Origin: Planctomycetota bacterium
GTDB lineage: Bacteria; Planctomycetota; UBA1135
Direction of reading: 5' to 3'
Assembly (NCBI GenBank): GCA_040264055.1
Contig: JBDQJC010000009.1
Span: 2,315-66,314, forward strand
DNA length: 64,000 nucleotides
In this document: positions 4,506-64,000 of the stretch, one piece after another
How positions within the stretch are numbered: position 1 is the first letter of the stretch
Layout of the letters: each line of letters opens with the position of its first letter
The notes under the pieces: generated by a model
Database searches by the model: none
Seen by the model: the letters and a program-made list of their open reading frames with translations, nothing else
What the model was told of the DNA's origin: nothing
Translations under genes and position numbers: made by a program

Positions 4506-4592
4506 TCGGCAGTATGTGAGCGGCCTTCGCGGTTCCGCCCCGCGCGACTACCCTTCTGATCGGGCAGGGGGCAACCCCCGCGCCCAGTAAGC

Positions 4593-7846: not shown

Positions 7847-7911
7847 ATCCTGCACTGCGATCATGCGCAGCACACACGAGGGCCGACGGCGAATCGGTAT
7901 GCTCGCGTGAC

Positions 7912-8652
7912 ATGAGTCAGCTTCAAGCTGCCGCGGTGCAGCCCGTTGCTTTGCGTGTTGGCCGCGCGTTTGCGCGAGTGGTCATCGCCGGGCCGCTTGC
8001 TGTTCTGGGGCTGGAGCTGTTTTATAGCAGTCAGACTCTCAGCCTTCATTTTCAAGGCGGGCCCTCGATCGTATTCGGAATCCTTGCTGGAGTGATGGCG
8101 ATTGCCTTGGGTGGCTCACGCGGCCGCCTGGGCAAGCTGCGCCTCTTTCGCTGGGCTCTGATCGCGTGTTTATTGACTTCGATTTCCACGCGCAGCCATC
8201 TTGTCTTTGGAAACGAAGGCGGAGCGATGGGGCCGGTTGCTTGGTTGAGCTCAAGCCTTGGCCTTTGTTTGTTGGCCGCCGGAGTTGCATGCAGCTGGGT
8301 GCGCGTTCCATTCGGCGCAGCGGATCCCGCCAAATCGAAGGGCGAGAACTCCCAGTCGAAGGCATTGCAACGCCTCAGCAAGTTGCTGTGGATCACGGTC
8401 TTGTGTTCCTACGCCGTTTCGATCGCGCCTTATGTCTTCCTCCAGGATGCCGACGCCCGCTTCATGCTGGGATTATCGATGTACTTCGTACTGCATCTCG
8501 GCCTGATCTTCCTTGCGACTTGGATTGCATTGGTGCAAGACGCGCCGATGCCCGGCGGCTCCGCCAGAATCGCCGCGATCTTGCTTTACCCGATCATTGC
8601 CCTTGCTTTCGCACTCGCCTTCCCTCTCGCCATCTGGAGGCATTGGCTGTGA
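7912..8652 (+). CDS. Hypothetical integral membrane protein
   Basis: 246 aa with about 7 hydrophobic segments. Confidence 0.55.
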   Translation: MSQLQAAAVQPVALRVGRAFARVVIAGPLAVLGLELFYSSQTLSLHFQGGPSIVFGILAGVMAIALGGSRGRLGKLRLFRWALIACLLTSISTRSHLVFGNEGGAMGPVAWLSSSLGLCLLAAGVACSWVRVPFGAADPAKSKGENSQSKALQRLSKLLWITVLCSYAVSIAPYVFLQDADARFMLGLSMYFVLHLGLIFLATWIALVQDAPMPGGSARIAAILLYPIIALAFALAFPLAIWRHWL

Positions 8653-8667: not shown

Positions 8668-11373
8668 CTACTTGACCGCTTTCTTCAGCGGTGTCCATCG
8701 CTCGGCCGACTGATTGGCGCGTAAGAAGCACACCCGGTCAAGATTCATGAGCCCGCCGCCACCATTGGGGTTCTGAAAGACGATGTAAAGATCGTGCGTG
8801 TGGCCCGGATCAGTGACGGGGATGGTGATTTCGTACCAATCTTCCCAAGCGCCGTTTGGCTCGACCTTGGTCTGCGCGAGAAGCGGGCCGTCAAGGGAAT
8901 CGGCGCGCAGTTCGATCGAGCCGCCCGATCCAGCCGAGGAAACGCGTAGCGAGACGCGGTCGATTCCATCCAGCCTGATGTCGTCATAGCGCAGGTGACT
9001 ACCGGCGTTGATCGCACCGACGAAGGCGCCGCCCGTCGCAGTATCCGACTGGAGTACCGAATTGCCAGCATTGGCGTGGAAGAACTCGGCCTCCATCGCG
9101 GGGTGACGCAGGTGCAGTTGCGTGCGTGCGGTGAGCGGGCCGATGGCTTCCGTTCCGGCATCGGTGTAGCTCGCCGTGAGCAAGAGCGAGCCGGTGTGCT
9201 CGCCGAGTTGAATCACGCCGGTTAGGCCACGCTGCACCTGCATCGTGGGACCACTTGCATCCAGCCCAAGCACCCACGAGACCATCTGCCGCGCCTCGCT
9301 TTCATCGTGCTGCGGATGCGGAAGCATCGGGATTTGACCCCAAACTCCGGTCGAACCTTCACGGACACGCTGCGCGAGCAAGTCCATGGCATCGTGCTCG
9401 CCGCGATACTTATTGGCGATCTCCATCAGCGAAGGGCCCACCACGCGATGGTCAACCGCATGGCAGTGGAAGCAATCGCTGCGTTTCATCGCGTCGCGGC
9501 CGGGTGTTGACGCAAGCTCGGCGGTGACCAGCCCGGGGAAGGCGCCTGGATACCAAGCCGCTTCGAGCGTGACTCTTGCTTGCATGGCTGTTTGACTGGC
9601 TGCGTCGCCGTCTTCGGCATCGTGTACCTGGAGCGCCCAAGGGATGGAGTCGCCAGCCGGAAGGAAGCCGCCGGCGGCGGGGGACGCGAAGGCAATCTCG
9701 GGCTGGCTGTTTCCGACCAAAACCGGCATGACAGTACGCGCGCTGGCGCCGGATGGGTCGGTTAGGGTCAGCTCAAGGTTGTAGCTGCCTTCGTAGACGA
9801 AGTTGAGTTCCGGGTTTGCCTCGGTGGATAGCACGCGGTCCAAGGGCGGCACGCGCCAGCTGTACTTCAGCGCATCACCGTCGGGGTCGTAGCTACCCTC
9901 GGTCGAAGCCTGAACTCGCAGCGGGGCCGGACCAATGTTCCCGCTCAGAGAAACCTGCGGGCGCGGACTGCGATTGCCCGCGAAGTAGTCGATGCGGACT
10001 AGCGCCGAGTCTTCGTTGGTGCCCCAAGTGGAGCCGTACTCAAGCATGTACAGCGAACCATCCGGGCCAAACTCCAGATCGACCGGGCGCTTGAAGCTAC
10101 GCTCGGGCAGGAAGCGTTCGAGTCGCTCGATGTTCGAGTCTGCATCGAGGTGCACCGCGGTGATCCAGTGCCGCGACCATTCAAAGGCGAACAGGCAACG
10201 ATCGTAATGCGCGGGAAACTTGGTGTCGGACTCCAGCGTCGCATCAAAGTCATAAACCGGGCCGGCGCAAGCAGTGCGGCCACCCGGCGCGTTGAGTTCC
10301 GGGAACTTGTCCGAATCCCCGTAGGGGTAATAAATCCAAGCCGGTTGCGCGGGCGGCAGAATGCGCGCGCCGGTGTTGTTCGGCGAAGTGTTGACCGGCT
10401 TGGCAGGGTCGTAGGCTGGGCCAATCTCGTTCGTCTCAAAATTGACATCACGATAGGGCTGATTGTCGGCGATGAAATAAGGCCAACCAAAGTTTCCCGC
10501 CGCGCGCGCTTGATTGATCTCGTCGTAACCGCGCGGGCCGCGTTCGCCATCGCCACCCGCGTCAGGTCCGACTTCGCCCCAGTAGACGAAGCCCGTTTTC
10601 TGATCGACGCCGATGCGCCAAGGATTGCGACAACCCATGACGTAGATCTCGGGGCGGCCTTCGCTGAGGTCGGTGAATAGATTGCCTTCCGGGATTTCGT
10701 AGCCGGTTCTGGTCAATCGAATGCGCAAGATCTTGCCACTCAAGCTCTGGGTATTCGACGGGCCCTTCTGTGCGTCGAAGGGGGCGCGGTCGTGACGCTC
10801 GTCAATCGGCGCGAAGCCTTGCGCGTCGCCGCCGGGGTGGGTGTTGTCACCGGTCGCGATGAACAACAAGCCGTCCGGCCCAAACTCCAAAGCGCCGGCG
10901 TGATGGCAGCACTCGCGGCGCTGCTCTTCGAAGGTCAGCAAGACCTGCTCGGAACTGCGGTCGAGCGTATTGCCATCCAAGCGGAAACGGCTCAAGCGCT
11001 GGCCCGAGAAGTCGGGCGGTGAATACAGCAGATACAGCTCTTGGTTGTTGGCAAAATCTGGATCGAGCGCCAAGCCGATCAAGCCGTTCTCTTGTTCGGC
11101 GAAGACCTCAAGTTCACCGGCTTCGAGAACCTGCCCGCTTGACGGATCGTAAATGCGCAACTTGCCGCCGAGTTCAATCCATAACACGCGGCCGTCCGGT
11201 GTGACCGTGAGCTCCATCGGTCGATCCAGCGCGCTCACGAGCGTGGTGGTTTCAAAACGAGTGGGATCGGGGTCGTTCCCCGCGAGTGCGGTCGGCTTCG
11301 ATTCCTGCGCGCCGAGCACCGGGGCGGCAACAAGTCCGAGACTAGTGAGCCAAAGAGAGTGAAAGAGTTTCAT
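8668..11373 (-). CDS. PQQ-dependent sugar dehydrogenase (GSDH) + PKD + cytochrome c + CBM6 multidomain protein
   Basis: Signal peptide; CCHHAG, GDNT, LSGKILRI, GCRNPWR, GNFGWP; PKD SYDPDGDALKYSW; heme motif CFHCH with distal PMLPH; C-terminal CBM6-like SAGSGGSIELRADS..G.HDLYIVF. Confidence 0.85.
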   Translation of the reverse strand: MKLFHSLWLTSLGLVAAPVLGAQESKPTALAGNDPDPTRFETTTLVSALDRPMELTVTPDGRVLWIELGGKLRIYDPSSGQVLEAGELEVFAEQENGLIGLALDPDFANNQELYLLYSPPDFSGQRLSRFRLDGNTLDRSSEQVLLTFEEQRRECCHHAGALEFGPDGLLFIATGDNTHPGGDAQGFAPIDERHDRAPFDAQKGPSNTQSLSGKILRIRLTRTGYEIPEGNLFTDLSEGRPEIYVMGCRNPWRIGVDQKTGFVYWGEVGPDAGGDGERGPRGYDEINQARAAGNFGWPYFIADNQPYRDVNFETNEIGPAYDPAKPVNTSPNNTGARILPPAQPAWIYYPYGDSDKFPELNAPGGRTACAGPVYDFDATLESDTKFPAHYDRCLFAFEWSRHWITAVHLDADSNIERLERFLPERSFKRPVDLEFGPDGSLYMLEYGSTWGTNEDSALVRIDYFAGNRSPRPQVSLSGNIGPAPLRVQASTEGSYDPDGDALKYSWRVPPLDRVLSTEANPELNFVYEGSYNLELTLTDPSGASARTVMPVLVGNSQPEIAFASPAAGGFLPAGDSIPWALQVHDAEDGDAASQTAMQARVTLEAAWYPGAFPGLVTAELASTPGRDAMKRSDCFHCHAVDHRVVGPSLMEIANKYRGEHDAMDLLAQRVREGSTGVWGQIPMLPHPQHDESEARQMVSWVLGLDASGPTMQVQRGLTGVIQLGEHTGSLLLTASYTDAGTEAIGPLTARTQLHLRHPAMEAEFFHANAGNSVLQSDTATGGAFVGAINAGSHLRYDDIRLDGIDRVSLRVSSAGSGGSIELRADSLDGPLLAQTKVEPNGAWEDWYEITIPVTDPGHTHDLYIVFQNPNGGGGLMNLDRVCFLRANQSAERWTPLKKAVK

Positions 11374-49254: not shown

Positions 49255-50762
49255 GGAACAAACTGAATCCGTCGCGGCAGCGAGGTATGGAGACCAATAG
49301 GCACGCTGCCCCATTCCTCGTACAGCACCACGGCCATCCAAAGTTCGCGACCGATCAGCAAGTGAGATCTTGGTCCAGGAGTGAGCGTCGCGAGCGCATC
49401 GCCGTCCGCATCGAGCGTGCCCCAGAATCCTGTGCTGCCCCGAATCTTGGTTCCGGCCAAGGTTCGGCCAAGGAAGGGACTCCAACCCAATGGCAGTGGG
49501 AAGTCGTTGATCCATGTCCTCTCGCCGAATGTACATTCGCTAGCGAGCACAACATAGCGCGTGCCGGCGCGGACGGAAGAAAAGTCGATCGTCGCGTAGC
49601 ACGTGTCTTGCGTGCTCGCGGAGATCGTGCCCGGATCGAGGGCTAGACCAGGAAGCAAAGAGATAACTTCTACGCCGCTGGATCCGCTTTGCATGAGCAG
49701 GTCGGTTACGCCGTCGCCGTTGTCATCCGGATAGCTTCCGATGAGACCGGTGAAGCCAAACACAGAGGAGAAGCGTTGTCCTGTGACGTACGAGTAGAAG
49801 TCGGTCCGACTCCGGTTCCACGATTCGCCGATGAGGTCATCGACCCCGTCGCCATCGATGTCGGGAAACGGAGTGAGCACTCCAGATGATGCGCCACCCA
49901 AGTTCGGCCCACTGAAAATGACCTGGCCAGTCGCGCCATCAAGGATCTGAAGGATTGAATTGAGAAAGCAGATATCGGGTGTGCCATTCCCGTTCTGATC
50001 CGGGACTGCCCCGGCGCCGGCGACGTTTTGCCACCATGGGTACTCCCAATGCTCTTGCCCCGTGGCTGCTGTCACGACACGGTAGGTTATGCCGAATACA
50101 TCTTGTGCGACAATGACTTCGGCTTGGCCGTCATGGTCAACATCGCCGAGCGGACTGCAGTAGTCGGCACCCGTGATCGCTCCGATCCGCTTGTTGCGAG
50201 CGAACGAGTAGAAGATCAGGCCAAGGTAAAAATCCGGACGAAAGCTGATCCCGATGTCCTCGAAGCCGTCTCCATCAAGATCTCCGACCTGGGAAAGACT
50301 GGAGGCGAAGCGAGGCACTCCACCAGGGTTGTCGAAACGTTGCATGAGGCTTCCGTCGATTCCCGAGTAGAGAAAGACCGCACCCTCGCCTGCGTTCGCG
50401 GTTTGCGTTGCGACGACGAACTCGTCAATGGCATCGCCATTCAAGTCACCGATCAGGAGAAGCGAGTCTCCGAGTCGATCTCCGGTGTCGCCGTCTACCC
50501 GGAATAGCGCGGAACCATCCGCCCCAGAGATCACGCGTAGGCTGCCCGCGTCGAGGCCAGCGGTTGAGTCGCTCGGATCTCCAATGAGAACATCGGCGAA
50601 CCCGTCGCCGTCGAAGTCATGAATGCGAACAAAGCGCGGCTGCCCAGGGAAGTCGCCAATCTGGCGTGACCATTCAAAGTCTCCTTGGGCGGGAGCGATC
50701 GCTACTGCAGCAATCGTGCTGACACCGGTCAGGAGGGATGAGAATTTTGTGCGAAGAATCAT
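49251..50762 (-). CDS. Secreted FG-GAP (integrin alpha-like) repeat protein with shared C-terminal domain
   Basis: ATG 50762 overlapping upstream stop; repeats DFDGDGFAD, DLNGDAID, DLDGDGFED, DVDHDG, DIDGDGVDD. Confidence 0.82.
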   Translation of the reverse strand: MILRTKFSSLLTGVSTIAAVAIAPAQGDFEWSRQIGDFPGQPRFVRIHDFDGDGFADVLIGDPSDSTAGLDAGSLRVISGADGSALFRVDGDTGDRLGDSLLLIGDLNGDAIDEFVVATQTANAGEGAVFLYSGIDGSLMQRFDNPGGVPRFASSLSQVGDLDGDGFEDIGISFRPDFYLGLIFYSFARNKRIGAITGADYCSPLGDVDHDGQAEVIVAQDVFGITYRVVTAATGQEHWEYPWWQNVAGAGAVPDQNGNGTPDICFLNSILQILDGATGQVIFSGPNLGGASSGVLTPFPDIDGDGVDDLIGESWNRSRTDFYSYVTGQRFSSVFGFTGLIGSYPDDNGDGVTDLLMQSGSSGVEVISLLPGLALDPGTISASTQDTCYATIDFSSVRAGTRYVVLASECTFGERTWINDFPLPLGWSPFLGRTLAGTKIRGSTGFWGTLDADGDALATLTPGPRSHLLIGRELWMAVVLYEEWGSVPIGLHTSLPRRIQFVP

Positions 50763-52375
50763 GGGGCAATCTCCAGAGTGAGGGGGAAGGAACACTTCGT
50801 ACCAATTCGGACTGAGCCGATAGCATCGAATAGAACTGCAGCGAGGTGAAACTCGGCGCCTACCCATGCGGACATGCCGGGGCCCGCCTGAAGGCTCGCA
50901 TACGCTCGACCGTCTGCCCCGAGTCGACCTATGAAGCCAGTCGAGTGCGGTGGAGTCATTCCCGCCATTCCAGCATCAAAGAGTTCATCCTGGCTTAAGG
51001 GGATTCTGAATCCATTGACTGAGGTAGGGCCATAACCTGTGTACGAAGCGAGAATGCGGTAGCTTGAGCCGGCGTCAGTTCGGGGGAATGTCAGGAATAG
51101 ACGCAGCGGCTCCGATGCACTGAGAGAAAGTTCGGTCGTATCTGCAATCAAGAGTCGGTTGTAGCCCGTCACGCGGACACTTCCTTCGTTTCCGTCGAAC
51201 GGAGCACCGATAAGCAGCTCAACTTGATCGTCTTGGTCGACGTCACCGAGTGTGTCGAGGCGGTAGCCGAACGAACTCTTCCTGGGACCTTGGATGCGTG
51301 TAAGAAGCCGGTGATCTGCGCTTGAATAAACGCTTACATATCCGCCCATATAGGGGCGGTCCAGCCGCTTCTGTTTCGCGCTGATTGCGTAGTCGTCAAT
51401 TCCATCGCCGTTGAAATCGCCAAGTCCGACGACTCGGGTCCCGAATCGATCATTGGGGCGCGTTCCGGAATGCTCGTGCAAAGTGATTCCGGTGCGGCCA
51501 TCCAAGATTGAGGCGCTGCCGGTCTGGCTATCGGTGAGTGGGGCGCCAACAAGCACCTCAGGGACACCGTCGTCATTGATGTCGGGCGCACGGCCGACCG
51601 CGCTTCCGAAACTGCTGCCGGCTAGACCTGACGCTCTCCAGATCGTGCGGCCGGTTGCCCCGGAAACCGCAATCACGGCACCTGTTGAGGAGCCCGCCGC
51701 AGAGTACCCAGGGATACCGATGACAAAGTCATCATGAAGGTCGCCGTTGAGGTCCGCGACAGGGGCAAAGGGGCCAGCGGGCAATCGATACATTAGGTCA
51801 CCGCTTGCGCCGGAGTGCACAAAGACGCCGCCTCCGGTGTAGGCGAAGTCGTCGAAGCCATCCGCATCAAGGTCGCCGACGCCACCGACCTTCCTGCCGA
51901 TGCTTTGCCGAGCGACTTGAGCGTCGATCACCCAGAGATCCGAACCATCTGCCCCCGAGCGCACATAGACACGTCCGCCCAAACCGCCGCTCGGTTCGCC
52001 AATCATGTAGTCGCCGATTCCATCCGCATCTACGTCCCCGGCATCGCCCACGCCATATCCGAACTCGCCAAATTGCTCGATGGCATCCTCGCGACGGACA
52101 AGCGCTCCGTTCGCGCCGGACAAGAAAACGACAGCCGGAGCTTTGTCGCCAACCCGGCTCAGCGGCTTGCCGATGAGGACATCACGGACGCCATCACCGT
52201 CCTGATCAGACACCGCGCACACGCCTGACTCCTTGGTATAGACGAAGTGGTCGCTCCAGGTCCAGCGATCGGAAACTCCGGGGTCTTGAGCGCCGCTAAA
52301 CGGTGCGAGAACCTGAAATGCGGCGCAGCCGAGTACCGCGTAACGCGCCCAGGTAACGAAGGTCGAAGTGTTCAT
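50759..52375 (-). CDS. Secreted FG-GAP (integrin alpha-like) repeat protein with shared C-terminal domain
   Basis: ATG 52375; FG..V..GDVDADG, VLVGAP, LLIGAP, SGA.G repeats. Confidence 0.85.
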   Translation of the reverse strand: MNTSTFVTWARYAVLGCAAFQVLAPFSGAQDPGVSDRWTWSDHFVYTKESGVCAVSDQDGDGVRDVLIGKPLSRVGDKAPAVVFLSGANGALVRREDAIEQFGEFGYGVGDAGDVDADGIGDYMIGEPSGGLGGRVYVRSGADGSDLWVIDAQVARQSIGRKVGGVGDLDADGFDDFAYTGGGVFVHSGASGDLMYRLPAGPFAPVADLNGDLHDDFVIGIPGYSAAGSSTGAVIAVSGATGRTIWRASGLAGSSFGSAVGRAPDINDDGVPEVLVGAPLTDSQTGSASILDGRTGITLHEHSGTRPNDRFGTRVVGLGDFNGDGIDDYAISAKQKRLDRPYMGGYVSVYSSADHRLLTRIQGPRKSSFGYRLDTLGDVDQDDQVELLIGAPFDGNEGSVRVTGYNRLLIADTTELSLSASEPLRLFLTFPRTDAGSSYRILASYTGYGPTSVNGFRIPLSQDELFDAGMAGMTPPHSTGFIGRLGADGRAYASLQAGPGMSAWVGAEFHLAAVLFDAIGSVRIGTKCSFPLTLEIAP

Positions 52376-52746
52376 TGGAATGTGATCTCTTTGGTAGAGG
52401 TTGCGACCGACGCCTTTCTGCCGACCGGTTCGTAGATCGAGGCGGAATCGCACTCGGTGTCGAATGTGATTCCGATTGGAAGGGAGCGAGCCGACTGAAT
52501 CCAGGTTGCAGAAACGTCAGAATCACTCGCATTCACTCCCACTCAATCCGGGTTTTCGCCGGTGTGAACGGGCAATGAGCACTCTTCCAAGCTTTGCGGT
52601 GCAACCGCAATCGAAGCTGCGAAGCCAGCCAGGAGTAAGAGTTCCCCCAGCTCTATTGTCCGATAACTCCCGACGCGACTCCTGCCAAGGTCATTCTTCA
52701 GCGCGCCGCTGTGGAGTCGATTTCTCTATGGCAGCTGTTTCATCAG

Positions 52747-54267
52747 CTACTGGATGACATAGCGGATTGGTTGGCTTGAGGCAGTGATCGGTCCGTTCGC
52801 GGGAAAATGCACTGCGACACCGTAGATCGGGATTCCGTGGGGAAGCCCCCAAGGAAGGTACGGATGTGCACGCGAGAATTCGCCGTTCTCGTCGAGTCTG
52901 CCGCGGAAGATTCCTGACTTGCTATGGAACTTCCATTGCAGTTCTCGCTGAGGAATAAACAGTCCATGGAAGTTGCCGCTACCGAGCCCCAGTTCATTAC
53001 GCGGATCCTGCGTGCTGACGAAGAAGAAGCGCTCGAAGGGGGCGCCGCCATCCAGGCTGATACGTAGCGTCTGATCGCCACCCGGTTGATCGACGGTCAT
53101 CTTGAATGCAGGAGCGCTGGGGACATTCTCTAGCCAGCCGATCTTGCGCCCGCTCCAAACAACGAGGTCGAGATCGTGATCACCGTCAAGATCAACCGCG
53201 GGAGCAATGCGATCGTATTGGCCGTTCGGGTCGCCGGCTGTCCGGAAGTACAGTTGGAATGAACTCTGCCCGACGTTGTCAAAGACAAGGACTTCGGCGT
53301 CATTTCGCGAGTAAGCAAACTCGATGTCTCCGTCTCCATCGAAGTCGGCGCTTGCCCCTCGCGCGTAGCCATCTGTGAAATTCGGCCAACCGTGCATAAG
53401 GTGAATACTCTCAAACGAGTAGCTTGGCCCTCCTTGTGACCAATACCCCTTGAGTGAGTGGGAAAAGTCGGTGCGCCAGTAAGTAGTCAAGACCTCCGCG
53501 AAACCATCTCGGTTGAGGTCGACAGCATCGACTAGATGAGAGTTTGAACGTTCATCGATTTCGTGTTCGACGAAGAGTGCATCTCCATCGTTTTCCCACC
53601 AGCTAATGATGCCGTCGAGAAAAATACCGTTGCCAATCGTGACCGTCACAATGTCGGGGATCTGGTCCGAGTTGAAGTCTCGGACAACGAGGTAGCCGAT
53701 CGATCCCCAGGTGCGACTCGTTCCAATGTTGTGATAAGAGAAGTTGAGTTGCCCGTCGTTCCTGAGCATGGCAAGGTGGTTGCGCTCATCTCGCACGATG
53801 AGGTCAAGGTCGCCGTCGAGATCGAGGTCTGCCGGGAATTCGAATGCGAGGAGTCCACTGGAAGACGGGAAGTCGAAAATCACGGTCCAGTCAAATTGAG
53901 CGTGGCCGAGGTTTTCGCCGATCGCGAGTTGCAGGTTCGATGCAGTGAGATATCCACAAGCGATGATGTCGAGGTCGCCATCGCCGTCCACGTCTCCTGC
54001 GCCGAGCTGCGGGATATTGCCGACTTGCCAGCCTCTAGAAGAAGAAAAACCCCCTGCGCCATCGTTCTCATGGAAACGGACCTCAGAGGCACCGGAGGCC
54101 ATCAAGTCAGCATCTCCGTCTTGATCAAAGTCACCGGCAACGACCCCGGCCCACTGGGCACCGCCTACTCCTGGAATTTCGTGATCGACCCAGTCAGATT
54201 GAGCGTGTAGCGATGGAATCGCCGCGATCCACACGGCGAGTGCGAGAATTTGAGGTGCATGTTTCAT
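52747..54267 (-). CDS. Secreted VCBS/FG-GAP repeat protein with shared C-terminal domain
   Basis: Signal peptide; DFDQDGDAD, DVDGDGDLD, DLDLDGDLD, WWENDG, WLEN. Confidence 0.82.
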   Translation of the reverse strand: MKHAPQILALAVWIAAIPSLHAQSDWVDHEIPGVGGAQWAGVVAGDFDQDGDADLMASGASEVRFHENDGAGGFSSSRGWQVGNIPQLGAGDVDGDGDLDIIACGYLTASNLQLAIGENLGHAQFDWTVIFDFPSSSGLLAFEFPADLDLDGDLDLIVRDERNHLAMLRNDGQLNFSYHNIGTSRTWGSIGYLVVRDFNSDQIPDIVTVTIGNGIFLDGIISWWENDGDALFVEHEIDERSNSHLVDAVDLNRDGFAEVLTTYWRTDFSHSLKGYWSQGGPSYSFESIHLMHGWPNFTDGYARGASADFDGDGDIEFAYSRNDAEVLVFDNVGQSSFQLYFRTAGDPNGQYDRIAPAVDLDGDHDLDLVVWSGRKIGWLENVPSAPAFKMTVDQPGGDQTLRISLDGGAPFERFFFVSTQDPRNELGLGSGNFHGLFIPQRELQWKFHSKSGIFRGRLDENGEFSRAHPYLPWGLPHGIPIYGVAVHFPANGPITASSQPIRYVIQ

Positions 54268-54374: not shown

Positions 54375-55046
54375 CTAGTCGACCCGGAACATCGGGTATG
54401 GCGTTGGAAACAAGGCGCCAAGCTCGGGAACCTCGCTCGGTTGCACGTAGCCCTGCAGCATGCGCAGTTCATCCATCGCGCGTTCGGTCAAGATTTGCAA
54501 ATGCGTGTGACTGAACCAGTGGCCGGTATCGGCGCCTTCGCCGGTGATGGCGAATGAGGTGCCCGCAGTCAGGGCTTGCCCGACTTCCACCTGGAAAGCT
54601 GAGTTCAGGTGACCATAGAAGCTGAAGAAGCGCACGGCTTCAAGTTCATGGCGCAGCACCACATAACCGCCGTAGTTGCCGAGCCCAGCATCGACCCCGG
54701 TCGCGTGCACCGTCGCGTCGAGCGGGGCGTGCAAGGCTTCGCCCGCTTGCACGATGATGTCCAGGCCGGCGTGGATGACTCGTCCTTCTTCGATCATCTG
54801 CGGGAAGCGATGCAAGAGCGCAGTTCGGTCTTCCAAGTAGTTGCCAAGCCCCCAGCTCTTTCCGCTCGTTCCAAGATCGGCGAAGATCTGCGCCTGGAAG
54901 GTCTCGTAGTCGTCCGTCACATACTCGGCGACCCGCGGGTTGGCTGCGGTGAAGTCGAAGATGTACGGGTCTCCTTGCAGCAGCTCCCCAAACAAAGGGA
55001 AAGGCCGAAACGAGACTGCACGCGTTAGTTTCAGATAGCGGCTCAT
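54375..55046 (-). CDS. M23 family metallopeptidase-like protein, no signal peptide
   Basis: HAGLD (HxxxD), YGGYVVLRH, YGHL, HTHLQ (HxH). Confidence 0.82.
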   Translation of the reverse strand: MSRYLKLTRAVSFRPFPLFGELLQGDPYIFDFTAANPRVAEYVTDDYETFQAQIFADLGTSGKSWGLGNYLEDRTALLHRFPQMIEEGRVIHAGLDIIVQAGEALHAPLDATVHATGVDAGLGNYGGYVVLRHELEAVRFFSFYGHLNSAFQVEVGQALTAGTSFAITGEGADTGHWFSHTHLQILTERAMDELRMLQGYVQPSEVPELGALFPTPYPMFRVD

Positions 55047-55068: not shown

Positions 55069-56295
55069 CTAGGCCAAGAAAGGCTCGTCGATCGAGCGCG
55101 AAGGCTGCGTGAACCAACGCGGCCCGGTCTCGGTCATGTAGAAGTGATCTTCGAGGCGAACGCCAAATTCACCCGGGGCACAGATCATTGGTTCGTTGCT
55201 AAAGCACATGCCCGGGGCAAGTGGGGTGCGGTCGCTCGCCACCAGGTAAGGGCCTTCGTGAATGTCGAGGCCAATGCCATGGCCGGTGCGGTGCGGCAAT
55301 CCAGGCAAGGAATAGTGGGGGCCGAAGCCATGCGATTCAATGCAGCGGCGCGCGGCAGCATCGACCTCGCCGCAGGGCACGCCAATCTGCGCGGCATCGA
55401 AGGCCGCGGCCTGGGCTTCCTTCTCGGCGTTCCAAATCTGACGGTGCCGTTCAGTCGGTTCGCCAAAGACATAACTACGCGTGATGTCCGATTGATACCC
55501 GTGCAAAGTGCAGCCGGTATCGATGAGCACCATGTCTCCATCTTGCAGAGTTTGTGGGTGGGGCACGCCGTGCGGGTAGGCCGTGGCTTCGCCAAACAGC
55601 ACGATGACGAAACTGTTGCCGCCCGGTGCGCCCAAGGCTTGATGGGCCTGGTTCAAGAAAGCCTCGACCTCGGTGGTCACGATGCCTGGCCGCAAGATGG
55701 CCGCCGCGGCTTCATGCGCTTCCAAGGTCATATCCTTGGCGCGCTGCAGCAAGGCGAGTTCGGCGGCCGATTTGCAACCGCGGCAGGTCTGCACCAATGG
55801 GCCGGCATCGATCAACTCGCAATCCGGCGCGGCTGCGCGAATGCCCTCGGTAATGAAGAAAGGCGCGCTTGAATCGATCGCGATTCGCAGAGTCTTGCCG
55901 TCGGACTTGCCCAAGCCAAGCGCAGACAAAGTCTGGCGCAACAGGGTGTACGGGCTTTCGTGCTCGTGCCACAGCGCGACCGGCCCGCCGATCACCATGC
56001 GCTGCTCGAGCGTGCCGAGTTCAAAGTGCGGCGCGAGGTAGTGCAGCTTTCCATCGGCGGTCAACAGCGCGCCGACCAAGCGTTCGCTCGGGTACCAACT
56101 CGTGCCCGTGAAGTAGAGAAGGTTCGAACCGGCGTGCAGATACAGCGCGTCGATCTTGTCAGCGCGCATCTGGGCCTGCACTGCGGCAATGCGCGCCTGA
56201 TGTTCCTCGGCGCCAATCGGGGCGACACCGCCGGTCCGATCGCCAAGTAGAGCCAGTTGTTCCTGGGGAGTGCTGCCGCCGATTCCTTTTGTCAT
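55069..56295 (-). CDS. Xaa-Pro dipeptidase (M24B)
   Basis: DTG, YQSDITR, HRTGHGIGLDIHE, SNEP, GVRLEDH; ATG 56295 with GGAG upstream. Confidence 0.92.
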   Translation of the reverse strand: MTKGIGGSTPQEQLALLGDRTGGVAPIGAEEHQARIAAVQAQMRADKIDALYLHAGSNLLYFTGTSWYPSERLVGALLTADGKLHYLAPHFELGTLEQRMVIGGPVALWHEHESPYTLLRQTLSALGLGKSDGKTLRIAIDSSAPFFITEGIRAAAPDCELIDAGPLVQTCRGCKSAAELALLQRAKDMTLEAHEAAAAILRPGIVTTEVEAFLNQAHQALGAPGGNSFVIVLFGEATAYPHGVPHPQTLQDGDMVLIDTGCTLHGYQSDITRSYVFGEPTERHRQIWNAEKEAQAAAFDAAQIGVPCGEVDAAARRCIESHGFGPHYSLPGLPHRTGHGIGLDIHEGPYLVASDRTPLAPGMCFSNEPMICAPGEFGVRLEDHFYMTETGPRWFTQPSRSIDEPFLA

Positions 56296-56386
56296 CTGTT
56301 TCTCCAATGAGGCTTCTGAGGCTAGGTCGTCGCCCGCTGTCGCGCCACGAGAATCCAGCCCTCGCGACCCTTGTTAGCATGATGAA

Positions 56387-58174
56387 ATGCTGCTTTCCCT
56401 CATTTTGGCATTTTCCGCGGCCGCCCAAGAGCCGGTCTTTCCGGAAGGAGCAGAGATTCCGCGCTCGTTAACGCCTGCTGAAGCGGCGTGGCTGATCGAC
56501 CACCCCTTGTTGCCACCGGCCGGCGCGATTGCACCCCCGACCGATGTCTGGTGCCCACCCGAGTACGCGCCGATGGACGGCATTTTGATCGCTTGGGAAG
56601 GCTCGGGCAGTTGGACCACGATCCTGGCCAAGATGGCGAAAGAGATCACCACCGTCGGCGACGCCGAGGTGCACGTGATGGTGGATTCGACGAGTGAGCG
56701 CAGCTCAGCTCGCAGTAAGCTGCAAAGCAACGGCGCCGACATGAATCGCGTGGTCTTCCACGTCGTGTCGACCGACACGATTTGGATCCGCGATTACGGC
56801 CCTCGTTACATCTATCAAGGCCAGGTTCGCAGCGTGGTTGATCATGTTTACAACCGCCCGCGGCCGCGCGATGACGACCAACCGATCTACTTCGCCCAGG
56901 CGCTGGGCCACGCCCGCTACGACATTCCGCTGATTCATGGTGGGGGCAACTTCCATTTGGATGGCCTCGATGGCGGCTACGCCACGCGTTTGATCAACAA
57001 CGAAAACTCGGGCAAGACCGAGCAACAGATCGCCGACCTTTGGCGCGATTACCAGGGTCTCGAGATGGAGTTCTTTGACCCTTACTCGAGCAGTATTGAC
57101 TCGACGCAGCATCTAGATATGTGGATGCAAGTGATCGCCGACGATGTGGTCGTGATCAGCGATTGGGTCAACAATCCGGGTTCGGCGCAGGACCAAATTT
57201 GCGAAGCCGCGGTCGTCGAAATGCAGGCACGCGGGTTTACGGTGCACCGTACCCCGGCGCGCCGCAGTGGGGGCACGCACTACACCTACACCAACGTGGT
57301 GATGTGTAACGACTTGGTGCTCATCCCGAGCTACACGAACGGAACGATTACCCAATACAACGCGCAAGCGCTGGCGATCTGGCAGCAGGCTTGCCCGGGC
57401 AAGGCGATCGTGCAGATCAATGCGCAAGACATCGTCACTTCGGCGGGGGTCCTGCATTGCATCGTCATGCACCTCCCTGCGCACTTGGGTGGGGTCAACC
57501 CGACCGCACGCTTGACCACCCAGCCCGGTGGCGTTGCCTATGACGGCGGCGAGCAAGTTTTGGTCGAGTGGCTTTCCGACGACGACGTGCAAGCGACCGC
57601 AGCTGAGTTATGGCTCACTTGGAATGGCGGCGCGAATACTAACCTGGTCGCAAGTGGTCTGACTGCATCCGGCAGCACGATTTGGACGGTGCCCAGCGTG
57701 GATCTGAGCGGCGCTCAACTGGAGCTGCGCGTGTTCGACGCCGACGGTAACACTGGGTCGAATGCTTCCACCGAGTTTTCAATTGGCGATGCCGCGGCAA
57801 GCCTGATTTACGGCGACGGCAAGGCCGGAAGCCAGGGCGTACCGCAACTCGTCTCGAGCGCCTTGCCGGTGCTCGGCGCAAGTCTGGACCTACAGCTTTC
57901 CTCTGCACTACCAAGCGGCCGCGCCTACCTGATCCGAGGCTTCGCAAGTGACAACGCGAGTTTCGACGGGGCCACTATTTGGGTCGATTACGACCAAGTT
58001 TACCCTCTGCAACTCGACGCATCGGGCGCGGCGATTCTTGCCGCAAACGTGCCGAGCGGCGCGCATCTCGCTGGCTACTCGGTCTACTTCCAAGCATGGG
58101 TACCGAATGACCCGCAGGCGGCAGGCGCTGGCTGGGCAAGTTCCGCGGGCCTTGAACTGCGGCTTGGTTACTGA
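56387..58174 (+). CDS. Secreted agmatine/peptidylarginine deiminase family protein with Ig-like and shared C-terminal domains
   Basis: Signal peptide; PPEY, WIRDYGP, GGN, HLD, YTN, GVLHC; C-terminus VYFQAWV..SAGLELRLGY. Confidence 0.88.
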   Translation: MLLSLILAFSAAAQEPVFPEGAEIPRSLTPAEAAWLIDHPLLPPAGAIAPPTDVWCPPEYAPMDGILIAWEGSGSWTTILAKMAKEITTVGDAEVHVMVDSTSERSSARSKLQSNGADMNRVVFHVVSTDTIWIRDYGPRYIYQGQVRSVVDHVYNRPRPRDDDQPIYFAQALGHARYDIPLIHGGGNFHLDGLDGGYATRLINNENSGKTEQQIADLWRDYQGLEMEFFDPYSSSIDSTQHLDMWMQVIADDVVVISDWVNNPGSAQDQICEAAVVEMQARGFTVHRTPARRSGGTHYTYTNVVMCNDLVLIPSYTNGTITQYNAQALAIWQQACPGKAIVQINAQDIVTSAGVLHCIVMHLPAHLGGVNPTARLTTQPGGVAYDGGEQVLVEWLSDDDVQATAAELWLTWNGGANTNLVASGLTASGSTIWTVPSVDLSGAQLELRVFDADGNTGSNASTEFSIGDAAASLIYGDGKAGSQGVPQLVSSALPVLGASLDLQLSSALPSGRAYLIRGFASDNASFDGATIWVDYDQVYPLQLDASGAAILAANVPSGAHLAGYSVYFQAWVPNDPQAAGAGWASSAGLELRLGY

Positions 58175-58888: not shown

Positions 58889-61285
58889 CTACAGGTCGAT
58901 GTAGTTACTGACCGTGCAGCTTTGCACGTCCAAGCATTGCACACGAATGTTTCCACATGCGCCGGCTGGCACATTGACGGTGACCGAAGTTGCAGTTCCA
59001 ATCGAAGCGACTTTCGGGTTGGTAATGTCGAAGCTTGCACCTGGGCAAACTGGACCACCGTGCACGTAGTTGCCAGGTGAACCGTAGGTCCAGACAACCA
59101 CGCCACCAGCCGTTTCACCACTGACCTCGAAGGTCATTTGGCCGCCACAGCTGCCCGATTCAATCCCAACTTGGAAGCCCGCCGATCCACCGGTCGTGCC
59201 GCGAACCGCCAAGGCGTAGTCAGCGTCGACTGCACCCGTCTCCGGGTGGGTGTCTTGGTTGACTTCATCGGCGATCACTTCCACGGTCCAGTTACCCGCG
59301 ATCGGGTTTTCCAGAATGACGTGTTCGATCGGATCCTTGGTGTTCGAAGCGCCGCCTGACTGACTGAAGTTGTAGACCGTGCCATTCAAACCACGGTTGC
59401 CCCAGTAGAAGGTGCCGTTCGGATCGGTGACGCGCAGCGACAAGTCGTTGATGCGGTGCAGCGAAGAACTCGTGGTGCCGGCGCGGTCCATGTAGACCAA
59501 GGTAGCTTGGAACTCAGGGGTGCCGGGCGCGACCGTCAGTGTGTAGCTGGTCGATTCGGTTTCCTGCAGTACGTCAGTCTCGTCGACCCAGAACATGCTG
59601 GAAGCGTTGTCGTACATCTTGCGCAGGTCAGGTCGGCCCCAACCTTGATGAATGCGCTTGATGTCAGTCTGGGTGTCCGGGTACTGCCAAGCGGTGTTCA
59701 TCATGATCGCACGCGCCAAAGTCGAGTGCGGGCGGCTATCAAAGACCGAAGCCCCAGTCGTGTTGTTGAAGTAGCCGTTGTGCCACATCTCGTAGAACAG
59801 CGCGAAGTGACCCGAAACAATCGGCGTTGCACCCGAGGTGCCGCCGAAGCTGCTGGTGTTGACGCAATCAATCGAGTCGTAGAAAGCATTCATGTCCGGC
59901 TTGATGCGTCCATCTGCTGCCGGTCCAATCGATGCGCCACTGTTCCAGTTGTCGTTGGCGTTGTTGAAGTCGTTGTAGTGACGAATACCGCCAACCGAAA
60001 CAATGTTCTTGGACCAAGCCTGCGGGCGAGAATCCTGGTTGCCAGCGTTCGACTGCGACTGCGTGATGACGATGTCATTGATGTAAATGATGTCGTCCAT
60101 CTGCTGCGAGACCGAGGTGTACGAGCGGGTGCGCGCGTCACCCCAACTGTTGGTCTGGTAGACAGCCTTGTAGATCTTGCCCGGATCGACCAAGTCGGCG
60201 GTGTGCGCGTAGCGGTTGCCGCCGTAGCTGCCGTAGTCGGCCATGATGCCTTGGGCATCGGGAGCAAGACCACGGTCGGTACCGTTGGTGTCAGCAAAGT
60301 TAATGCTGAAAGTCGAGGTGCCGTGCGCGCTGAAGTTGTAGCCGCCGTGGCTGATCGGGGTGTGGCGCCAAGCGCTGTTACCACCATCGAATCCGGAGTC
60401 GAAGACCTCGGCGCGTACGCCAGTGCCATCAAAGCCGGTCAATCCTTCGACATAGTCAGCGCCCATCAAGTTGCGGACACGATCCATGTCATTCTCTGGA
60501 GCACTCCAGCGATCAATCGCGAGCACTTCGGTTTGCTGGATGACCTGGATCATTTGCTGGGGGGTCAGCGAGGCTTCCAGGATCCAACCTTCATCGATCA
60601 TGGTTTCGACTTCACCGCCAATCGCGCGCACATAGTCGGCGATGACAGCTTTCTGCACCGGGCCCCAAGCGCCCACCACGATGCGGTAGCGATCATTGAC
60701 CACGCGGCCTTGGAAGTAATCGGCGAGCAGATCGTTCTCGATCTTGTAGGCCGGGTGGAACTCTCCGACCCAGCGCACGAAAGGCAGCTTGGCAACTTTC
60801 TCGGCGGTCGCGGCATCCATTTCCCAGACGTTCGCGTGCCAGGCCAAAAAGCGATGATCGACCGCGCCGAGCGAGCGGATCTCTTCGCGCCAAGGCTCCA
60901 GGCCCTGAGTTGCGTACTGCACGATGTACAGTTCGTGGCCTTCCGGCGCTCGCAATTCATCCGGCATGGCCGGTTCGGCTTGCGAGAGCGGGTCGAACTC
61001 AAGGTAGTTCAGCTTGAGGTCATAGGAAGTCTGACGGTCGCGGCCATAGCTTTGGCCACCATCCAAAGAAACGCGATACCAGGGTGTCAGCGTGCCTTCT
61101 TCGTTTGGCGCGGTCCAAGTGATGGCCATGGTGTTGCCATGGCGAATGACCTGTGCATCGTCAGACTGGGCGGGCGCGGGAACCGCTGCCGCCAGAATTA
61201 GGGTAGAGAGGGAGAGGAGCACGGAACCTAAAGAGAAACCGCGCACAAGCGCGGCGAATCTCCAGCCTAGCATTCCAAGCTCCAT
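58889..61285 (-). CDS. Secreted S8 serine peptidase with C-terminal beta domains
   Basis: Triad FDSG, HGT, GTSGATP; GRIKPD; QGWGR; INDLSLRV; exact start uncertain. Confidence 0.88.
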   Translation of the reverse strand: MELGMLGWRFAALVRGFSLGSVLLSLSTLILAAAVPAPAQSDDAQVIRHGNTMAITWTAPNEEGTLTPWYRVSLDGGQSYGRDRQTSYDLKLNYLEFDPLSQAEPAMPDELRAPEGHELYIVQYATQGLEPWREEIRSLGAVDHRFLAWHANVWEMDAATAEKVAKLPFVRWVGEFHPAYKIENDLLADYFQGRVVNDRYRIVVGAWGPVQKAVIADYVRAIGGEVETMIDEGWILEASLTPQQMIQVIQQTEVLAIDRWSAPENDMDRVRNLMGADYVEGLTGFDGTGVRAEVFDSGFDGGNSAWRHTPISHGGYNFSAHGTSTFSINFADTNGTDRGLAPDAQGIMADYGSYGGNRYAHTADLVDPGKIYKAVYQTNSWGDARTRSYTSVSQQMDDIIYINDIVITQSQSNAGNQDSRPQAWSKNIVSVGGIRHYNDFNNANDNWNSGASIGPAADGRIKPDMNAFYDSIDCVNTSSFGGTSGATPIVSGHFALFYEMWHNGYFNNTTGASVFDSRPHSTLARAIMMNTAWQYPDTQTDIKRIHQGWGRPDLRKMYDNASSMFWVDETDVLQETESTSYTLTVAPGTPEFQATLVYMDRAGTTSSSLHRINDLSLRVTDPNGTFYWGNRGLNGTVYNFSQSGGASNTKDPIEHVILENPIAGNWTVEVIADEVNQDTHPETGAVDADYALAVRGTTGGSAGFQVGIESGSCGGQMTFEVSGETAGGVVVWTYGSPGNYVHGGPVCPGASFDITNPKVASIGTATSVTVNVPAGACGNIRVQCLDVQSCTVSNYIDL

Positions 61286-61295
61286 TGTGGCGCTG

Positions 61296-64000
61296 CTACT
61301 GCCCCAAAGCGTCGGCGCGTTTGCCGTAGTCGCGCGCGAGTTCGACTAACCCATAGCTCGCGAAGGCCTTGGCCAAGAAGCGCCAATTGCGATGGCGCTT
61401 CATCAGGCGTTCGCCAAAGAACAGCGGATGGGCAGAACTGTCTTGCGGATGGAGGGTTGCGACAATGGAAGCATCACGCAACAACTCGCCCATGGTGATC
61501 TTGCCCTGATAGACCACACACAACTGGCCTTGTGCGTCAAGCAAGAGGCTCGTCGGTAGGGGGGATCCAGGCGCCGCGCCGAGTACTTCGTAAAGGATTG
61601 CTTCGAGCGCCGAAAGCATGCGTTCGTCGGCATAGCCCGCGTGCTCGCTGAGTCCGAATCGATCGAGCAGCTCAAGCGCGCGTGCGCGTGACTCGATCGG
61701 ATCCGTGTTCAAAGTGACGATGCGCAGGCCGCGTGCAGCGAGCTGATCCGAACGCCGTTGGAATGCGCCAAACTCTTTCAAACAGTTGGCGCAGTTCACT
61801 CCCCAGAGGTTGATCAGGATTGGCCCCGGTCCGAGGCTGGCAACGTTGCGACTTGGGTCGAGGAAGGACGGGATCGGAAGCGCGTGAAGCGGGATCCTCT
61901 CGATCAATGGAATCCGTACGACCGGGTTGCCGACTCGAGGCACAGCGAGACTCGGCGCCGCAGCAAGCGTGGTTGCAGCAGAGGCTCGCGCAGTGCTTTG
62001 CGCTTCGCCCTCGATCAGGCGGTAGCTCTGGTTCACGAGCAGATCCTTCCAGGTCTCAACTTCGCCGCTCGGCCAATGCACACGCAGCTCTTCCACGCGC
62101 TTGGCCGTACCAAGTCCAAAATGCAGAGTCTTGCTGGACTGCGCCAAGAAGCTGTCGCCGGCTTGCAGGGTGCGACGGAACTCCTGGCCGCCGGCCTTCA
62201 CGAACACGCGTGCGCCGATCGCATCGCGATTGCTTTTCCGTCCCTCAAGCTGAACCGCCAAATAGCTCCCGGCATCGGCTTGATTCAGCATCAATCGAAA
62301 CCTTGGTGCCGTGCGCGAGCGTAGCAACAAGTCAAGACGGCCATCGCCATCCCAATCGGTGCTGATGACGGCGCGCCCGTCGTCAGCAAAATCCGTATGC
62401 GAGACAGCGCTGACATCTGAAAACGAGCCGTCTCCGGCATTCAAGAATAGGTGGTTCTGCTCGCCGCCACTCCAGGACACGCCCTGCGTGCGGGTGAGTT
62501 CTTGAATGCTCGACCAAGCTTGTTCGTATTCTTCGGTTGCTTCTTCATCGGTGGGGGATTGCGACGTCACGCGTCGCCAGAAGAAACTTCACAAGTCATC
62601 CTTGATCGGCCCGGTCAGAAATCCGTTGGGCGCGTAAATGTCCGGAAGCCCATCGTTATTGAAGTCGACAAACTGCGAGCCCCAACTCCAACCCGCAATC
62701 GCGATGCCGGCGGTTTCGGTAACGTCGTGGAAGTTGCCCTTACCGTCATTAGCGAGCAGCGTATTGCCGCGCGCATGGCGCACATACTCCTGCGCGACCT
62801 CTCCGTGGTTCTCGCCTTGGAACTGCTGTTGCGGCGCGATCCTGAGCCCGGCCGAGCTGAACATATTGGTGACCAATAAGTCCATGTCGCCATCGCGATC
62901 GAAGTCGGCGGTGGAAAGGCCCATGCCTGCTGCCCGGTCTTCGGCGCCGCGCTCGGTCGCGACATCGCGGAACTTACCCCCTTCGTTGAGGTAAAGGTTG
63001 TTGTCGCCAAAATCATTGGCGACATAGAGGTCCATATCGCCATCATCGTCGAAGTCTTCCCAGATTGACGCCAAGCTGAACTTGCGGTTGTTGTGGTCGA
63101 GGCCGACCTCCACCGTGGCATGGGTGAACTTGCCAGGGCCGTCGTTGCGCCAATAGAAGTTGGACGCACCATTGTTCGCGTTGTGATAAGGCGTGGGAAC
63201 GCCGCCCATGATCCCGTTCGCGACATAACGCACCGCGTACAAGTCGAGGTCGCCGTCTTGATCCGCGTCGGCGGCTGACAACGAATACACGTCTTCGGCC
63301 CCGGTTCCATTCAGCGGTGTGAAGTCACCGAAACGACCCGAGCCATCGTTGTAGGCGACCAGCAAATTGGGCCCGAGCGAAGCAACGAAATCTTGGTCTC
63401 CATCGTTATCCAGGTCGAGGAAAAGCGCCGAGCGGGTCGACTCCAAGAATCCCAGGCGACTGGCCTCAGTCGCGTCGCGCAGGCTACCGTCCGCGGTATG
63501 CATCATCAGACGGTTGGGGACGCCGCCATGATTGCAGAGGTACAAGTCGTCGCGTCCATCGCCGTTGACATCGCCCAGGCTCATGCCTTGTGAGCCGATA
63601 AAGGCTTGGCTCATCAGTCGATCAGACTTTTGGTGATAGTCATCGACACCGGTCAGGACTTCGCGTTCCCAGAAGGCAAGGTCTGCGGCGACATGCGAAG
63701 TGATCTCGCGGAACAAGGGCCGCGAGGTATGGACTTCTTCGTATTCCAGAACCGCGATCCCGCGCAAGCTCGGCTTGTCCTCGGCGTCGACCGACCAATC
63801 GGTCATCCAGACCGCATTGATTTGCACCTGCGATCCGTCTGGCTTCGAGACCGACCAATGCACCAGCAGCTTGCCGCGGAAGGAGTCCGGCTCGATTTGA
63901 AGGTCGATGAACTTCAGAAAAGGGTGGGGGTGCGCGCCGCTTAGCGTCGCCCGAATCGGTGCCGTGAGTTCGGCCAGCGGGTGTGGCTCGGTCAGGGCCG
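61296..64000 (-). CDS. CRTAC1-like FG-GAP + ASPIC/UnbV + thioredoxin-like protein, 5' end outside window; single in-frame TGA at 62589-62591 (candidate selenocysteine; otherwise two ORFs 62589..>64000 and 61296..62570)
   Basis: Frame open from the window edge; FG-GAP repeats on both sides of ..IKDDL*SFFWRRVTSQSP..; SNRDAIGARV, LHFGLG, VHWPSG (ASPIC/UnbV); NLWGVNCANC (TlpA-like CxxC). Confidence 0.8.
62561..62577 (-). promoter_or_regulatory. Candidate bacterial SECIS element
   Basis: Stem GCGACG/CGTCGC, loop CGTGA, starting 11 nt after the in-frame TGA. Confidence 0.6.

Follow-up and report, generated by a model that had tools for sequence, protein, structure and literature searches.

The window analysed here is a stretch of 64,000 nucleotides from a Planctomycetota bacterium (lineage UBA1135; GenBank assembly GCA_040264055.1, contig JBDQJC010000009.1, positions 2,315 to 66,314 of the forward strand), and coordinates are those of this window unless a contig is named. 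Near its end, two minus-strand open reading frames (ORFs), 62589..63998 (5' open at the window end) and 61296..62570, lie in the same frame with only a TGA between them. Judging from this sequence and its homologues, the interval is very probably one gene, not two, whose UGA is recoded as selenocysteine (Sec). The features on which this reading turns are the following.

61296..64000, minus strand: candidate gene for an exported-type CRTAC1-like/TlpA-like selenoprotein, taken as one gene, with 900 of its 1031 codons in the window
62589..62591, minus strand: in-frame TGA, the putative Sec codon (U470 of the window frame, U601 of the full protein)
62561..62577, minus strand: hairpin GCGACG-CGUGA-CGUCGC of the selenocysteine insertion sequence (SECIS) type, with a 6-bp stem, a 5-nucleotide loop and a folding energy of -8.2 kcal/mol
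62559..62594, minus strand: island conserved at the nucleotide level, comprising a Leu TTG, the UGA and the ten codons after it, with synonymous sites almost frozen

Reading frame and extent of the gene

Within 62550-62600 the minus strand reads GAT GAC TTG TGA AGT TTC TTC TGG CGA CGC GTG ACG TCG CAA. When the TGA is translated as Sec (U), a single 900-residue frame results in which U470 is the only TGA, and the gene's own stop is a TAG at 61296-61298 (minus strand). Following the genome contig past the window gives a probable GTG start at about 64391 in window coordinates and a product of 1031 residues; a TTG 16 codons upstream of this GTG is an alternative start. The GTG that is assigned as the start of the downstream ORF (62568-62570) lies inside the hairpin loop, and the 20 nucleotides upstream of it, GAAGTTTCTTCTGGCGACGC, contain no purine-rich run resembling a Shine-Dalgarno sequence. 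An FG-GAP-type blade (…STDWDGDGRLD…) continues after the TGA, in a stretch that aligns to the FG-GAP repeats of CRTAC1.

The original prediction, made from the sequence alone, had quoted this strand and described two ORFs split only by a TGA, a stem 11 nucleotides after it with GU at loop positions 2-3, a downstream start codon in the loop that lacks a Shine-Dalgarno sequence, FG-GAP repeats crossing the stop, and a read-through protein of more than 900 amino acids. Each of these points is reproduced, the last through the 1031 residues obtained with the probable start outside the window.

Conservation of the in-frame TGA

Searched in six frames, 41 genomes from the same order (the order sample) yield homologues in 32, often as several copies per genome, and most matches have exactly one in-frame TGA. 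When 68 loci are mapped at the codon level, 50 gene copies align their TGA with that of the query. These are 31-99% identical to the query over a 140-residue piece around the site, share the motif D-[LV]-U-S-x-[FW]-W-R and fall into several paralogous subfamilies. Among 151 genomes drawn evenly from Planctomycetota (the phylum sample), 43 have homologues and 37 of these 43 have matches with an in-frame TGA. Twenty of these places were fetched, and all 17 loci flagged for a TGA carry it at the site (18 copies), with the motif variants DTUS[LVH][YFW]WR, PDGU[SAT]C[LV]W and DDLU[LP]S…VGRRS; second TGAs in the phylum-sample frames are true stops followed by junk sequence. Altogether, 68 homologous genes have the TGA in the same column, and forms with Cys (TGC) at this position exist but are rare.

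The residues that follow the TGA (S-x-F/W-W-R) are kept through synonymous changes (AGT/AGC, TTT/TTC, CGA/CGG), and the serine codon switches from AGY to TCG (UCG) in some homologues. The x-S-F-F-W-R motif is also present in full-length homologues that have no TGA and are single chains. A scan with the pattern GAYYTNTGAAGYTTYTTYTGGCG over one genome per species, with TGA at the site, detects at least 120 loci in five phyla, where about 2 would be expected by chance according to our own arithmetic. By record title, and among the matches listed, these belong to Planctomycetota (62), Verrucomicrobiota (33), Acidobacteriota (22), Bacteroidota (2) and Latescibacterota (1), with one unnamed.

The codon was also recovered independently of this assembly: run X2 of another study includes a contig (record 3) that covers 62386-62690, differs from the window in 17 places, all outside 62536-62621, and carries the same TGA at 62589-62591. 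A database fragment labelled by NCBI as 'VCBS repeat-containing protein' (P0066, 595 residues) ends at the TGA and is 87% identical over the query region. One RNA run (X16) contains a single 188-nucleotide contig at 62675-62862, short of the TGA, which is weak evidence of expression and has no bearing on read-through.

Several individual copies deserve mention. A second paralogue in the source genome (L050, contig C12:7055-9775) has a TGA at the same site (2978-2980), is 47% identical, spans 1053 codons from stop to stop and includes a CxxC motif (WGLTCANC). Locus L051 (G002:C60) has the conserved TGA and an upstream in-frame TAG that leaves only 76 codons before the putative Sec codon, and is probably a broken copy. 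In G003, G005 and G024, subfamily-C Sec genes (L069, L070, L072) occur as tandem pairs about 3 kb apart.

A hairpin of the bacterial SECIS type

The stem begins 11 nucleotides after the UGA and the loop 17 nucleotides after it; in the loop CGUGA, the G at position 2 is followed by U, and this GU corresponds to nucleotides 22-23 counted from the U of the UGA. Published constraints on bacterial SECIS (bSECIS) elements comprise a loop of 3-9 nucleotides with a G in its first two positions, a stem of 4-16 bp, a UGA-to-loop distance of 16-37 nucleotides and a minimum free energy of -7.5 kcal/mol or lower (PMC13188914, Fig. 2 legend). The hairpin of this gene, at -8.2 kcal/mol with a spacing of 17, the loop CGUGA and a 6-bp stem, falls within all four. 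Under our strict scoring, which accepts contiguous stems only, the same holds for 58 of 68 TGA forms versus 4 of 16 rows scored as non-TGA. One of these four, L068 (G040), is a true TGA form that tblastn misaligned by one codon; its site reads C-U.

A hairpin is present at this place in all 50 order-sample copies, starting 11-14 nucleotides after the UGA, with stems that vary by subfamily: GCGACG/CGUCGC, GCGACA/UGUCGC, GCGUGC/GUACGC, GCGCAC/GUGCGC, GCGUCAC/GUGACGC, GCGGCAU/AUGCCGC and CUCGGUC/GACCGAG. When synonymous codons were drawn from each gene's own usage, the recoding test gave a mean z of -1.32 in 49 TGA forms, 48 of which fall below zero, and a mean z of 0.0 in 10 non-TGA homologues; individual values reach p <= 0.05 in only 10 of the 49 TGA forms. 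Covariation was scored in an ungapped 45-column alignment with one pairing register, in which 75% of cells are paired and the score is 0.195 versus 0.127 for shuffles (none of 500 as high).

Across 32 genes from subfamilies A and B, codons -1 to +9 show hardly any synonymous variation, and codons -13..-2, +11 and +12 show the expected amount. The frozen codons include Arg CGC (28/28), Thr ACG (26/26) and Ser TCG (31/31). The Leu codon before the UGA (62592-62594) is TTG in 31 of the 32 genes, at a position where the expected codon entropy is 2.27 bits, and in 48 of 50 copies an A directly follows the UGA. These patterns point to a constrained codon context around the putative Sec codon that reaches past the hairpin. 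Contigs from three independent metagenome runs, otherwise belonging to other organisms, share with the window only 39-41 nucleotides within 62557-62601, with 2 differences. These matches correspond to the UGA plus the hairpin island, and would fit constraint at the nucleotide level.

Selenocysteine machinery

The source genome (3.25 Mb in 154 contigs, 69% complete) contains a tRNA-Sec (76.5 bits; identified by ARAGORN as SeC with anticodon tca) as well as selA (432 bits), selB (267.6 bits) and selD (317.5 bits), all scoring over curated cut-offs. Its selD itself has one in-frame TGA, read as U in …ACSGUAAKLP…, at a position that we take to be the known Sec/Cys site of SelD; this UGA is an internal positive control for Sec decoding in the source genome, and selD ends in its own TAG stop. 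On contig C72 (loci L001, L009 and L017), selA (3244-4575), selD (7343-8269) and the tRNA-Sec (10970-11062) all lie within 8 kb, and selB is on a separate contig, C104.

In the order sample, the cut-off is exceeded by tRNA-Sec in 40 and by selB in 39 of the 41 genomes, and in the phylum sample tRNA-Sec is found in 113 of 150 genomes. Phylum-sample genomes with a TGA form have Sec machinery in every case (37/37), and 36 of these 37 have a tRNA-Sec over the cut-off; the exception, G105 (87% complete, 560 contigs), has a selA at 549 bits. Six genomes contain only non-TGA homologues, and three of these (G044, G177 and G130) have neither a tRNA-Sec over the cut-off nor selA; G044 has TGC at the site. 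No sampled genome contradicts Sec decoding, and these counts come from related genomes and are not independent trials.

How the UGA is read

We propose that the UGA at 62589-62591 would be recoded as Sec by SelB and tRNA-Sec, under the direction of the hairpin within the coding sequence that starts 11 nucleotides downstream and would act as a bacterial SECIS. Sec decoding had been suggested in the original prediction, and the conserved TGA, the RNA element and the Sec machinery all support it.

Several observations weigh against this reading. In this sequence alone, chance could account for the hairpin: among 200 shuffles of the 71-nucleotide region, 20 fold as well (z = -1.32), and the synonymous recoding test yields p = 0.14, so the significance of the hairpin comes from the comparison of homologues only. 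The -7.5 kcal/mol threshold is missed, under the strict contiguous-stem scoring, by 10 of 68 TGA forms and, among the matches listed, by 38 of 121 cross-phylum copies. Sliding the pairing partner by -3 gives a covariation score of 0.198, which is no worse than that of the proposed register; subfamilies differ in register and in loop length, so that a score with one fixed register tells little here. A search of 62300-62800 against Rfam at E values up to 10 matched no family. Finally, 65 full-length homologues without a TGA mostly place A, S, E, D, N, Q, T, M, H or R opposite Sec, and only 6 of them have Cys there. A site so variable and so rarely Cys appears atypical for a catalytic Sec. TGC occupies the site in L105 and L106, the latter in a genome that lacks Sec machinery.

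A stem-loop downstream of a stop codon can promote read-through, and the UGA might instead be read by a near-cognate or suppressor tRNA (for Trp, Cys or Arg), with stimulation by the hairpin and without the Sec machinery; the identity of the inserted residue is not fixed by sequence data. We consider this very improbable. The TGA forms occur only in genomes with Sec machinery, the three homologue-bearing genomes without it hold only non-TGA forms, the hairpin agrees with the SECIS model in its spacing and loop G, and the same genome decodes UGA in selD.

There is equally little reason to expect that the TGA is a true stop, with one protein consisting of the propeller half and another, comprising the UnbV_ASPIC and thioredoxin half, started at the loop GTG. 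Gene callers and the NCBI annotation do split the locus in this way, and N-terminal fragments ending in …DDL are present in databases (P0044, P0052, P0066, P0071, P0078, P0081, P0105). However, the amino acids encoded by the six codons from the TGA to the GTG are conserved through synonymous changes, the GTG is the Val codon of the family motif WRxV and has no Shine-Dalgarno-like run before it, and in 68 genes the two parts stay in frame with zero spacing. Homologues without the TGA are single chains, and the read-through product folds as one model (predicted template modelling score, pTM, 0.92) with a propeller blade after the stop.

A sequencing or assembly error or a recent nonsense mutation (a pseudogene), which the fragmented and incomplete assembly might suggest, can be dismissed because the TGA is conserved in the 68 homologous genes and at least 120 further loci, and appears in the contig of the other study. 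Separately, a reassigned genetic code, with TGA as Trp or Gly, is excluded because each gene has a single TGA, whose position never varies.

Architecture of the predicted protein

From its N-terminus, the Sec-containing product would consist of a signal-peptide-like segment, an alpha/beta domain, a CRTAC1-type FG-GAP propeller, UnbV_ASPIC and a TlpA/ResA-like CxxC domain. The parts assigned within the window, all on the minus strand, are as follows.

62592..63278 (approximate): FG-GAP beta-propeller blades upstream of the putative Sec codon (Pfam FG-GAP_3, 5 stretches)
about 62340-62459: a further propeller blade after the helical insert that bears Sec (from the model and the CRTAC1 alignment)
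62022..62222: UnbV_ASPIC domain (PF07593, 74.4 bits versus a cut-off of 23.4)
61497..61859: TlpA/ResA-like thioredoxin-fold domain (from sub-cut-off profiles, a Foldseek match to ResA and a TlpA profile)
61782..61793: C-A-N-C motif, with C867 and C870 in full-length numbering, at the N-terminal end of helix 868-879

The N-terminus, MKIRIGTSRRSCVGLLSASLLLLLRANSPAQE, combines basic residues, RR among them, with a hydrophobic stretch and a site of small residues, and is the sole low-confidence part of the structural model. It resembles a signal peptide, which suggests that the protein is exported. In Pfam, FG-GAP_3 scores 153 bits versus a cut-off of 26.9 and is followed by UnbV_ASPIC, over its cut-off, in the same chain. 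The C-terminal part scores below the NCBIfam cut-offs for TlpA (30.5 versus 230 bits), ResA (27.6 versus 170) and DsbE (22.1 versus 123).

An AlphaFold2 model of the read-through protein, based on an alignment of 62 rows (8 Sec forms and 54 database proteins), has a mean predicted local distance difference test score (pLDDT) of 93.8 and a pTM of 0.92. Its top Foldseek match is murine CRTAC1 (9etn_A, E = 5.1e-24, template modelling (TM) score 0.71 normalised on the target), and the C-terminal domain matches ResA (2f9s/1st9, TM 0.70-0.73). A family profile search finds CRTAC1 at E = 3.4e-41 and TlpA (1jfu) at E = 2.8e-17. In the AlphaFold2 model, U601 is the first residue of helix 601-611, right after strand 596-599, and this helix lies in an insert between propeller blades; U601 and the first Cys, C867, each stand at a helix N-terminus. 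By sequence, the segment that bears Sec does not align with CRTAC1, where only the FG-GAP repeats aligned.

Joint distribution of Sec and the CxxC motif

In a MAFFT alignment of 114 rows (49 Sec and 65 non-Sec forms), CxxC is present in 47 of the 49 Sec forms versus 2 of the 65 non-Sec forms (P0002 and P0005). One of the two Sec forms without the motif is cut by a contig end and the other runs into masked N, and all six forms with Cys at the Sec site are without CxxC. Among the matches listed in the cross-phylum scan, 78 of 81 complete long Sec forms have CxxC.

On a FastTree phylogeny of the aligned rows, computed with the trait columns removed, the Sec state changes at least 7 times, with 5 changes forced by well-supported branches; an IQ-TREE phylogeny of 45 chosen rows has 6 changes, 5 of them forced. 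The approximately unbiased (AU) test, for a group named after the first tree had been seen and under LG+G4 without a mixture, rejects a single Sec clade (log-likelihood difference ΔlnL 550.7, p = 0.0033). Because repeated gain of the same UGA and SECIS at the same site is implausible, we infer that Sec was lost repeatedly, a direction read from an unrooted tree. The CxxC state follows the Sec state in about 4 of 4 independent contrasts, which are too few for significance (median p = 0.125).

A possible redox relay

The architecture suggests a mechanism in which Sec601, at the N-terminus of its helix, would act as a redox-active nucleophile in an exported protein. The oxidised Sec601 would be resolved by Cys867 of the fused TlpA/ResA-like CxxC domain, and the resulting CxxC disulfide could in turn be reduced from the cytoplasm by a membrane protein of the DsbD/CcdA type; the source genome has one DsbD_TM gene. 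Homologues that lost Sec, mostly to residues other than Cys, also lost CxxC, and would be non-redox proteins. The idea that a C-terminal CxxC redoxin domain recycles Sec was part of the original prediction, and it stands only in part. Sec and CxxC are kept or lost together in the fused forms, but 8 of the 18 phylum-sample Sec forms stop 190-220 residues past Sec and lack a thioredoxin-like domain. The relay in cis is also opposed by P0002 and P0005, which have CxxC without Sec, by the scores of the C-terminal part, which stay below the NCBIfam cut-offs and, at 19 bits versus 26, below that of the Pfam profile AhpC-TSA, and by the lack of any conserved operon partner across homologues. We regard such a relay as quite possible, though short of probable.

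Sec might alternatively be inserted and not work through the fused CxxC, serving instead in the binding of a metal or other ligand, in a reaction with a trans partner, or in making full-length synthesis dependent on selenium; in the last case, a truncated propeller would be made when selenium is scarce. The short Sec forms favour this alternative, three of them having U-x-C in place of the domain, as does the variability of the site in non-Sec homologues. Redox-active Cys and Sec are typically found at helix N-termini, and the placement of both Sec and the first Cys at such positions argues against it, as does their joint retention or loss in the fused subfamilies. Many predicted Sec-ligand contacts, as one review reports, involve metals (PMC13188914), which counts in favour of a role of this kind. 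On balance, we see it as a possible but somewhat doubtful account. The three short forms with the pair (L101, L103 and L104, from G150, G102 and G126) read G-U-[SAT]-C at the site and lack a thioredoxin-like domain, and the U-x-C pair may be a different way of resolving Sec.

A broader proposal sees in Sec and the fused CxxC the ancestral active site of a selenoenzyme that worked outside the cytoplasm on a CRTAC1-type propeller scaffold, from which Sec was lost at least five times, almost always to residues other than Cys, together with CxxC. We consider this unlikely on present evidence. If it is true, this chemistry does not allow Cys in place of Sec, and the majority of bacterial 'CRTAC1 family / VCBS repeat' proteins would be catalytically dead descendants; the vertebrate CRTAC1 lineage might be one as well.

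Comparison with known systems

The SECIS of E. coli fdhF has a bulged U in the upper stem in addition to GU in the loop. The 6-bp stem of the present gene is perfect and lacks the bulge typical of fdhF. More generally, genes with SECIS elements within the ORF, of which fdhF is the archetype and which the bSECIS model of Zhang and Gladyshev describes, share with this gene an in-frame UGA and a downstream coding hairpin with GU in its loop, but here the host is another protein family that is apparently extracytoplasmic.

Like murine CRTAC1 (9etn), the bacterial protein has an FG-GAP propeller followed by UnbV_ASPIC, to which it adds an N-terminal domain and a thioredoxin-fold domain. To our knowledge, CRTAC1 is not known as a redox protein. 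The thioredoxin fold and a W-x-x-x-C-x-x-C sequence at a helix N-terminus are shared with the oxidoreductases TlpA, ResA and CcmG, although here they belong to the C-terminal domain of a 1031-residue protein that scores far below the equivalog cut-offs. In Neisseria PilB/MsrAB, a periplasmic methionine sulfoxide reductase is fused to a TlpA-like domain, which draws on DsbD to regenerate the catalytic residue. This system is an analogy for the mechanism only; the catalytic parts are unrelated in sequence or fold.

Neighbouring genes

The surroundings of the gene in the window are as follows.

58889-61285, minus strand: S8 subtilase, 10 nucleotides downstream of the gene, an adjacency kept only within the genus
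56387-58174, plus strand: protein of the Porphyromonas-type peptidyl-arginine deiminase family
55069-56307: M24 peptidase
54375-55046: M23 peptidase
52747-54267 and 50759-52453: two further FG-GAP proteins without UnbV_ASPIC

No neighbour recurs across the subfamily-A copies. A FabH-like gene follows 11 subfamily-C copies on the same strand, which we take as plain synteny.

Novelty and implications

The original prediction did not recognise this protein as a described selenoprotein family, and the literature searches, which covered main texts, are in line with that statement. No mention of the family was found under FG-GAP, ASPIC, CRTAC1 or propeller in the main texts of a 2026 review (PMC13188914) and the deep-Sep paper (PMC12013277), under VCBS, integrin, cartilage or repeat in the main text of a 2022 review (PMC9312934), or under FG-GAP or repeat in the part of a 2016 ISME Journal paper covered by the search (PMC5029168). 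ASPIC and FG-GAP have 0 occurrences in the main text of Kim et al. 2016 (PLoS One, PMC4807772), the supplements being outside the search. A full-text literature search combining selenoprotein or selenocysteine with the names of the family domains or with Planctomycetota retrieved nothing relevant.

We class these genes as a barely documented and so far uncatalogued selenoprotein family that would use the ordinary bacterial recoding mechanism. That a SECIS hairpin can direct the insertion of Sec at UGA is textbook knowledge; what is new is the carrier, a large and apparently exported propeller protein found in at least five phyla. If the proposal is true, each of the TGA-bearing loci seen here should be annotated as one gene, not two, and other such loci probably should be too. 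Counts of selenoproteins would then be too low for Planctomycetota, Verrucomicrobiota and Acidobacteriota. The replacement of Sec by residues other than Cys is unusual, and would make searches based on Sec/Cys pairs less sensitive to this CRTAC1-like family.

We know of no function assigned to the CRTAC1/UnbV_ASPIC family. If Sec decoding is true, it would provide the first chemical handle on this family, in which a Sec at a helix N-terminus and a TlpA-like CxxC would point to extracytoplasmic redox chemistry.

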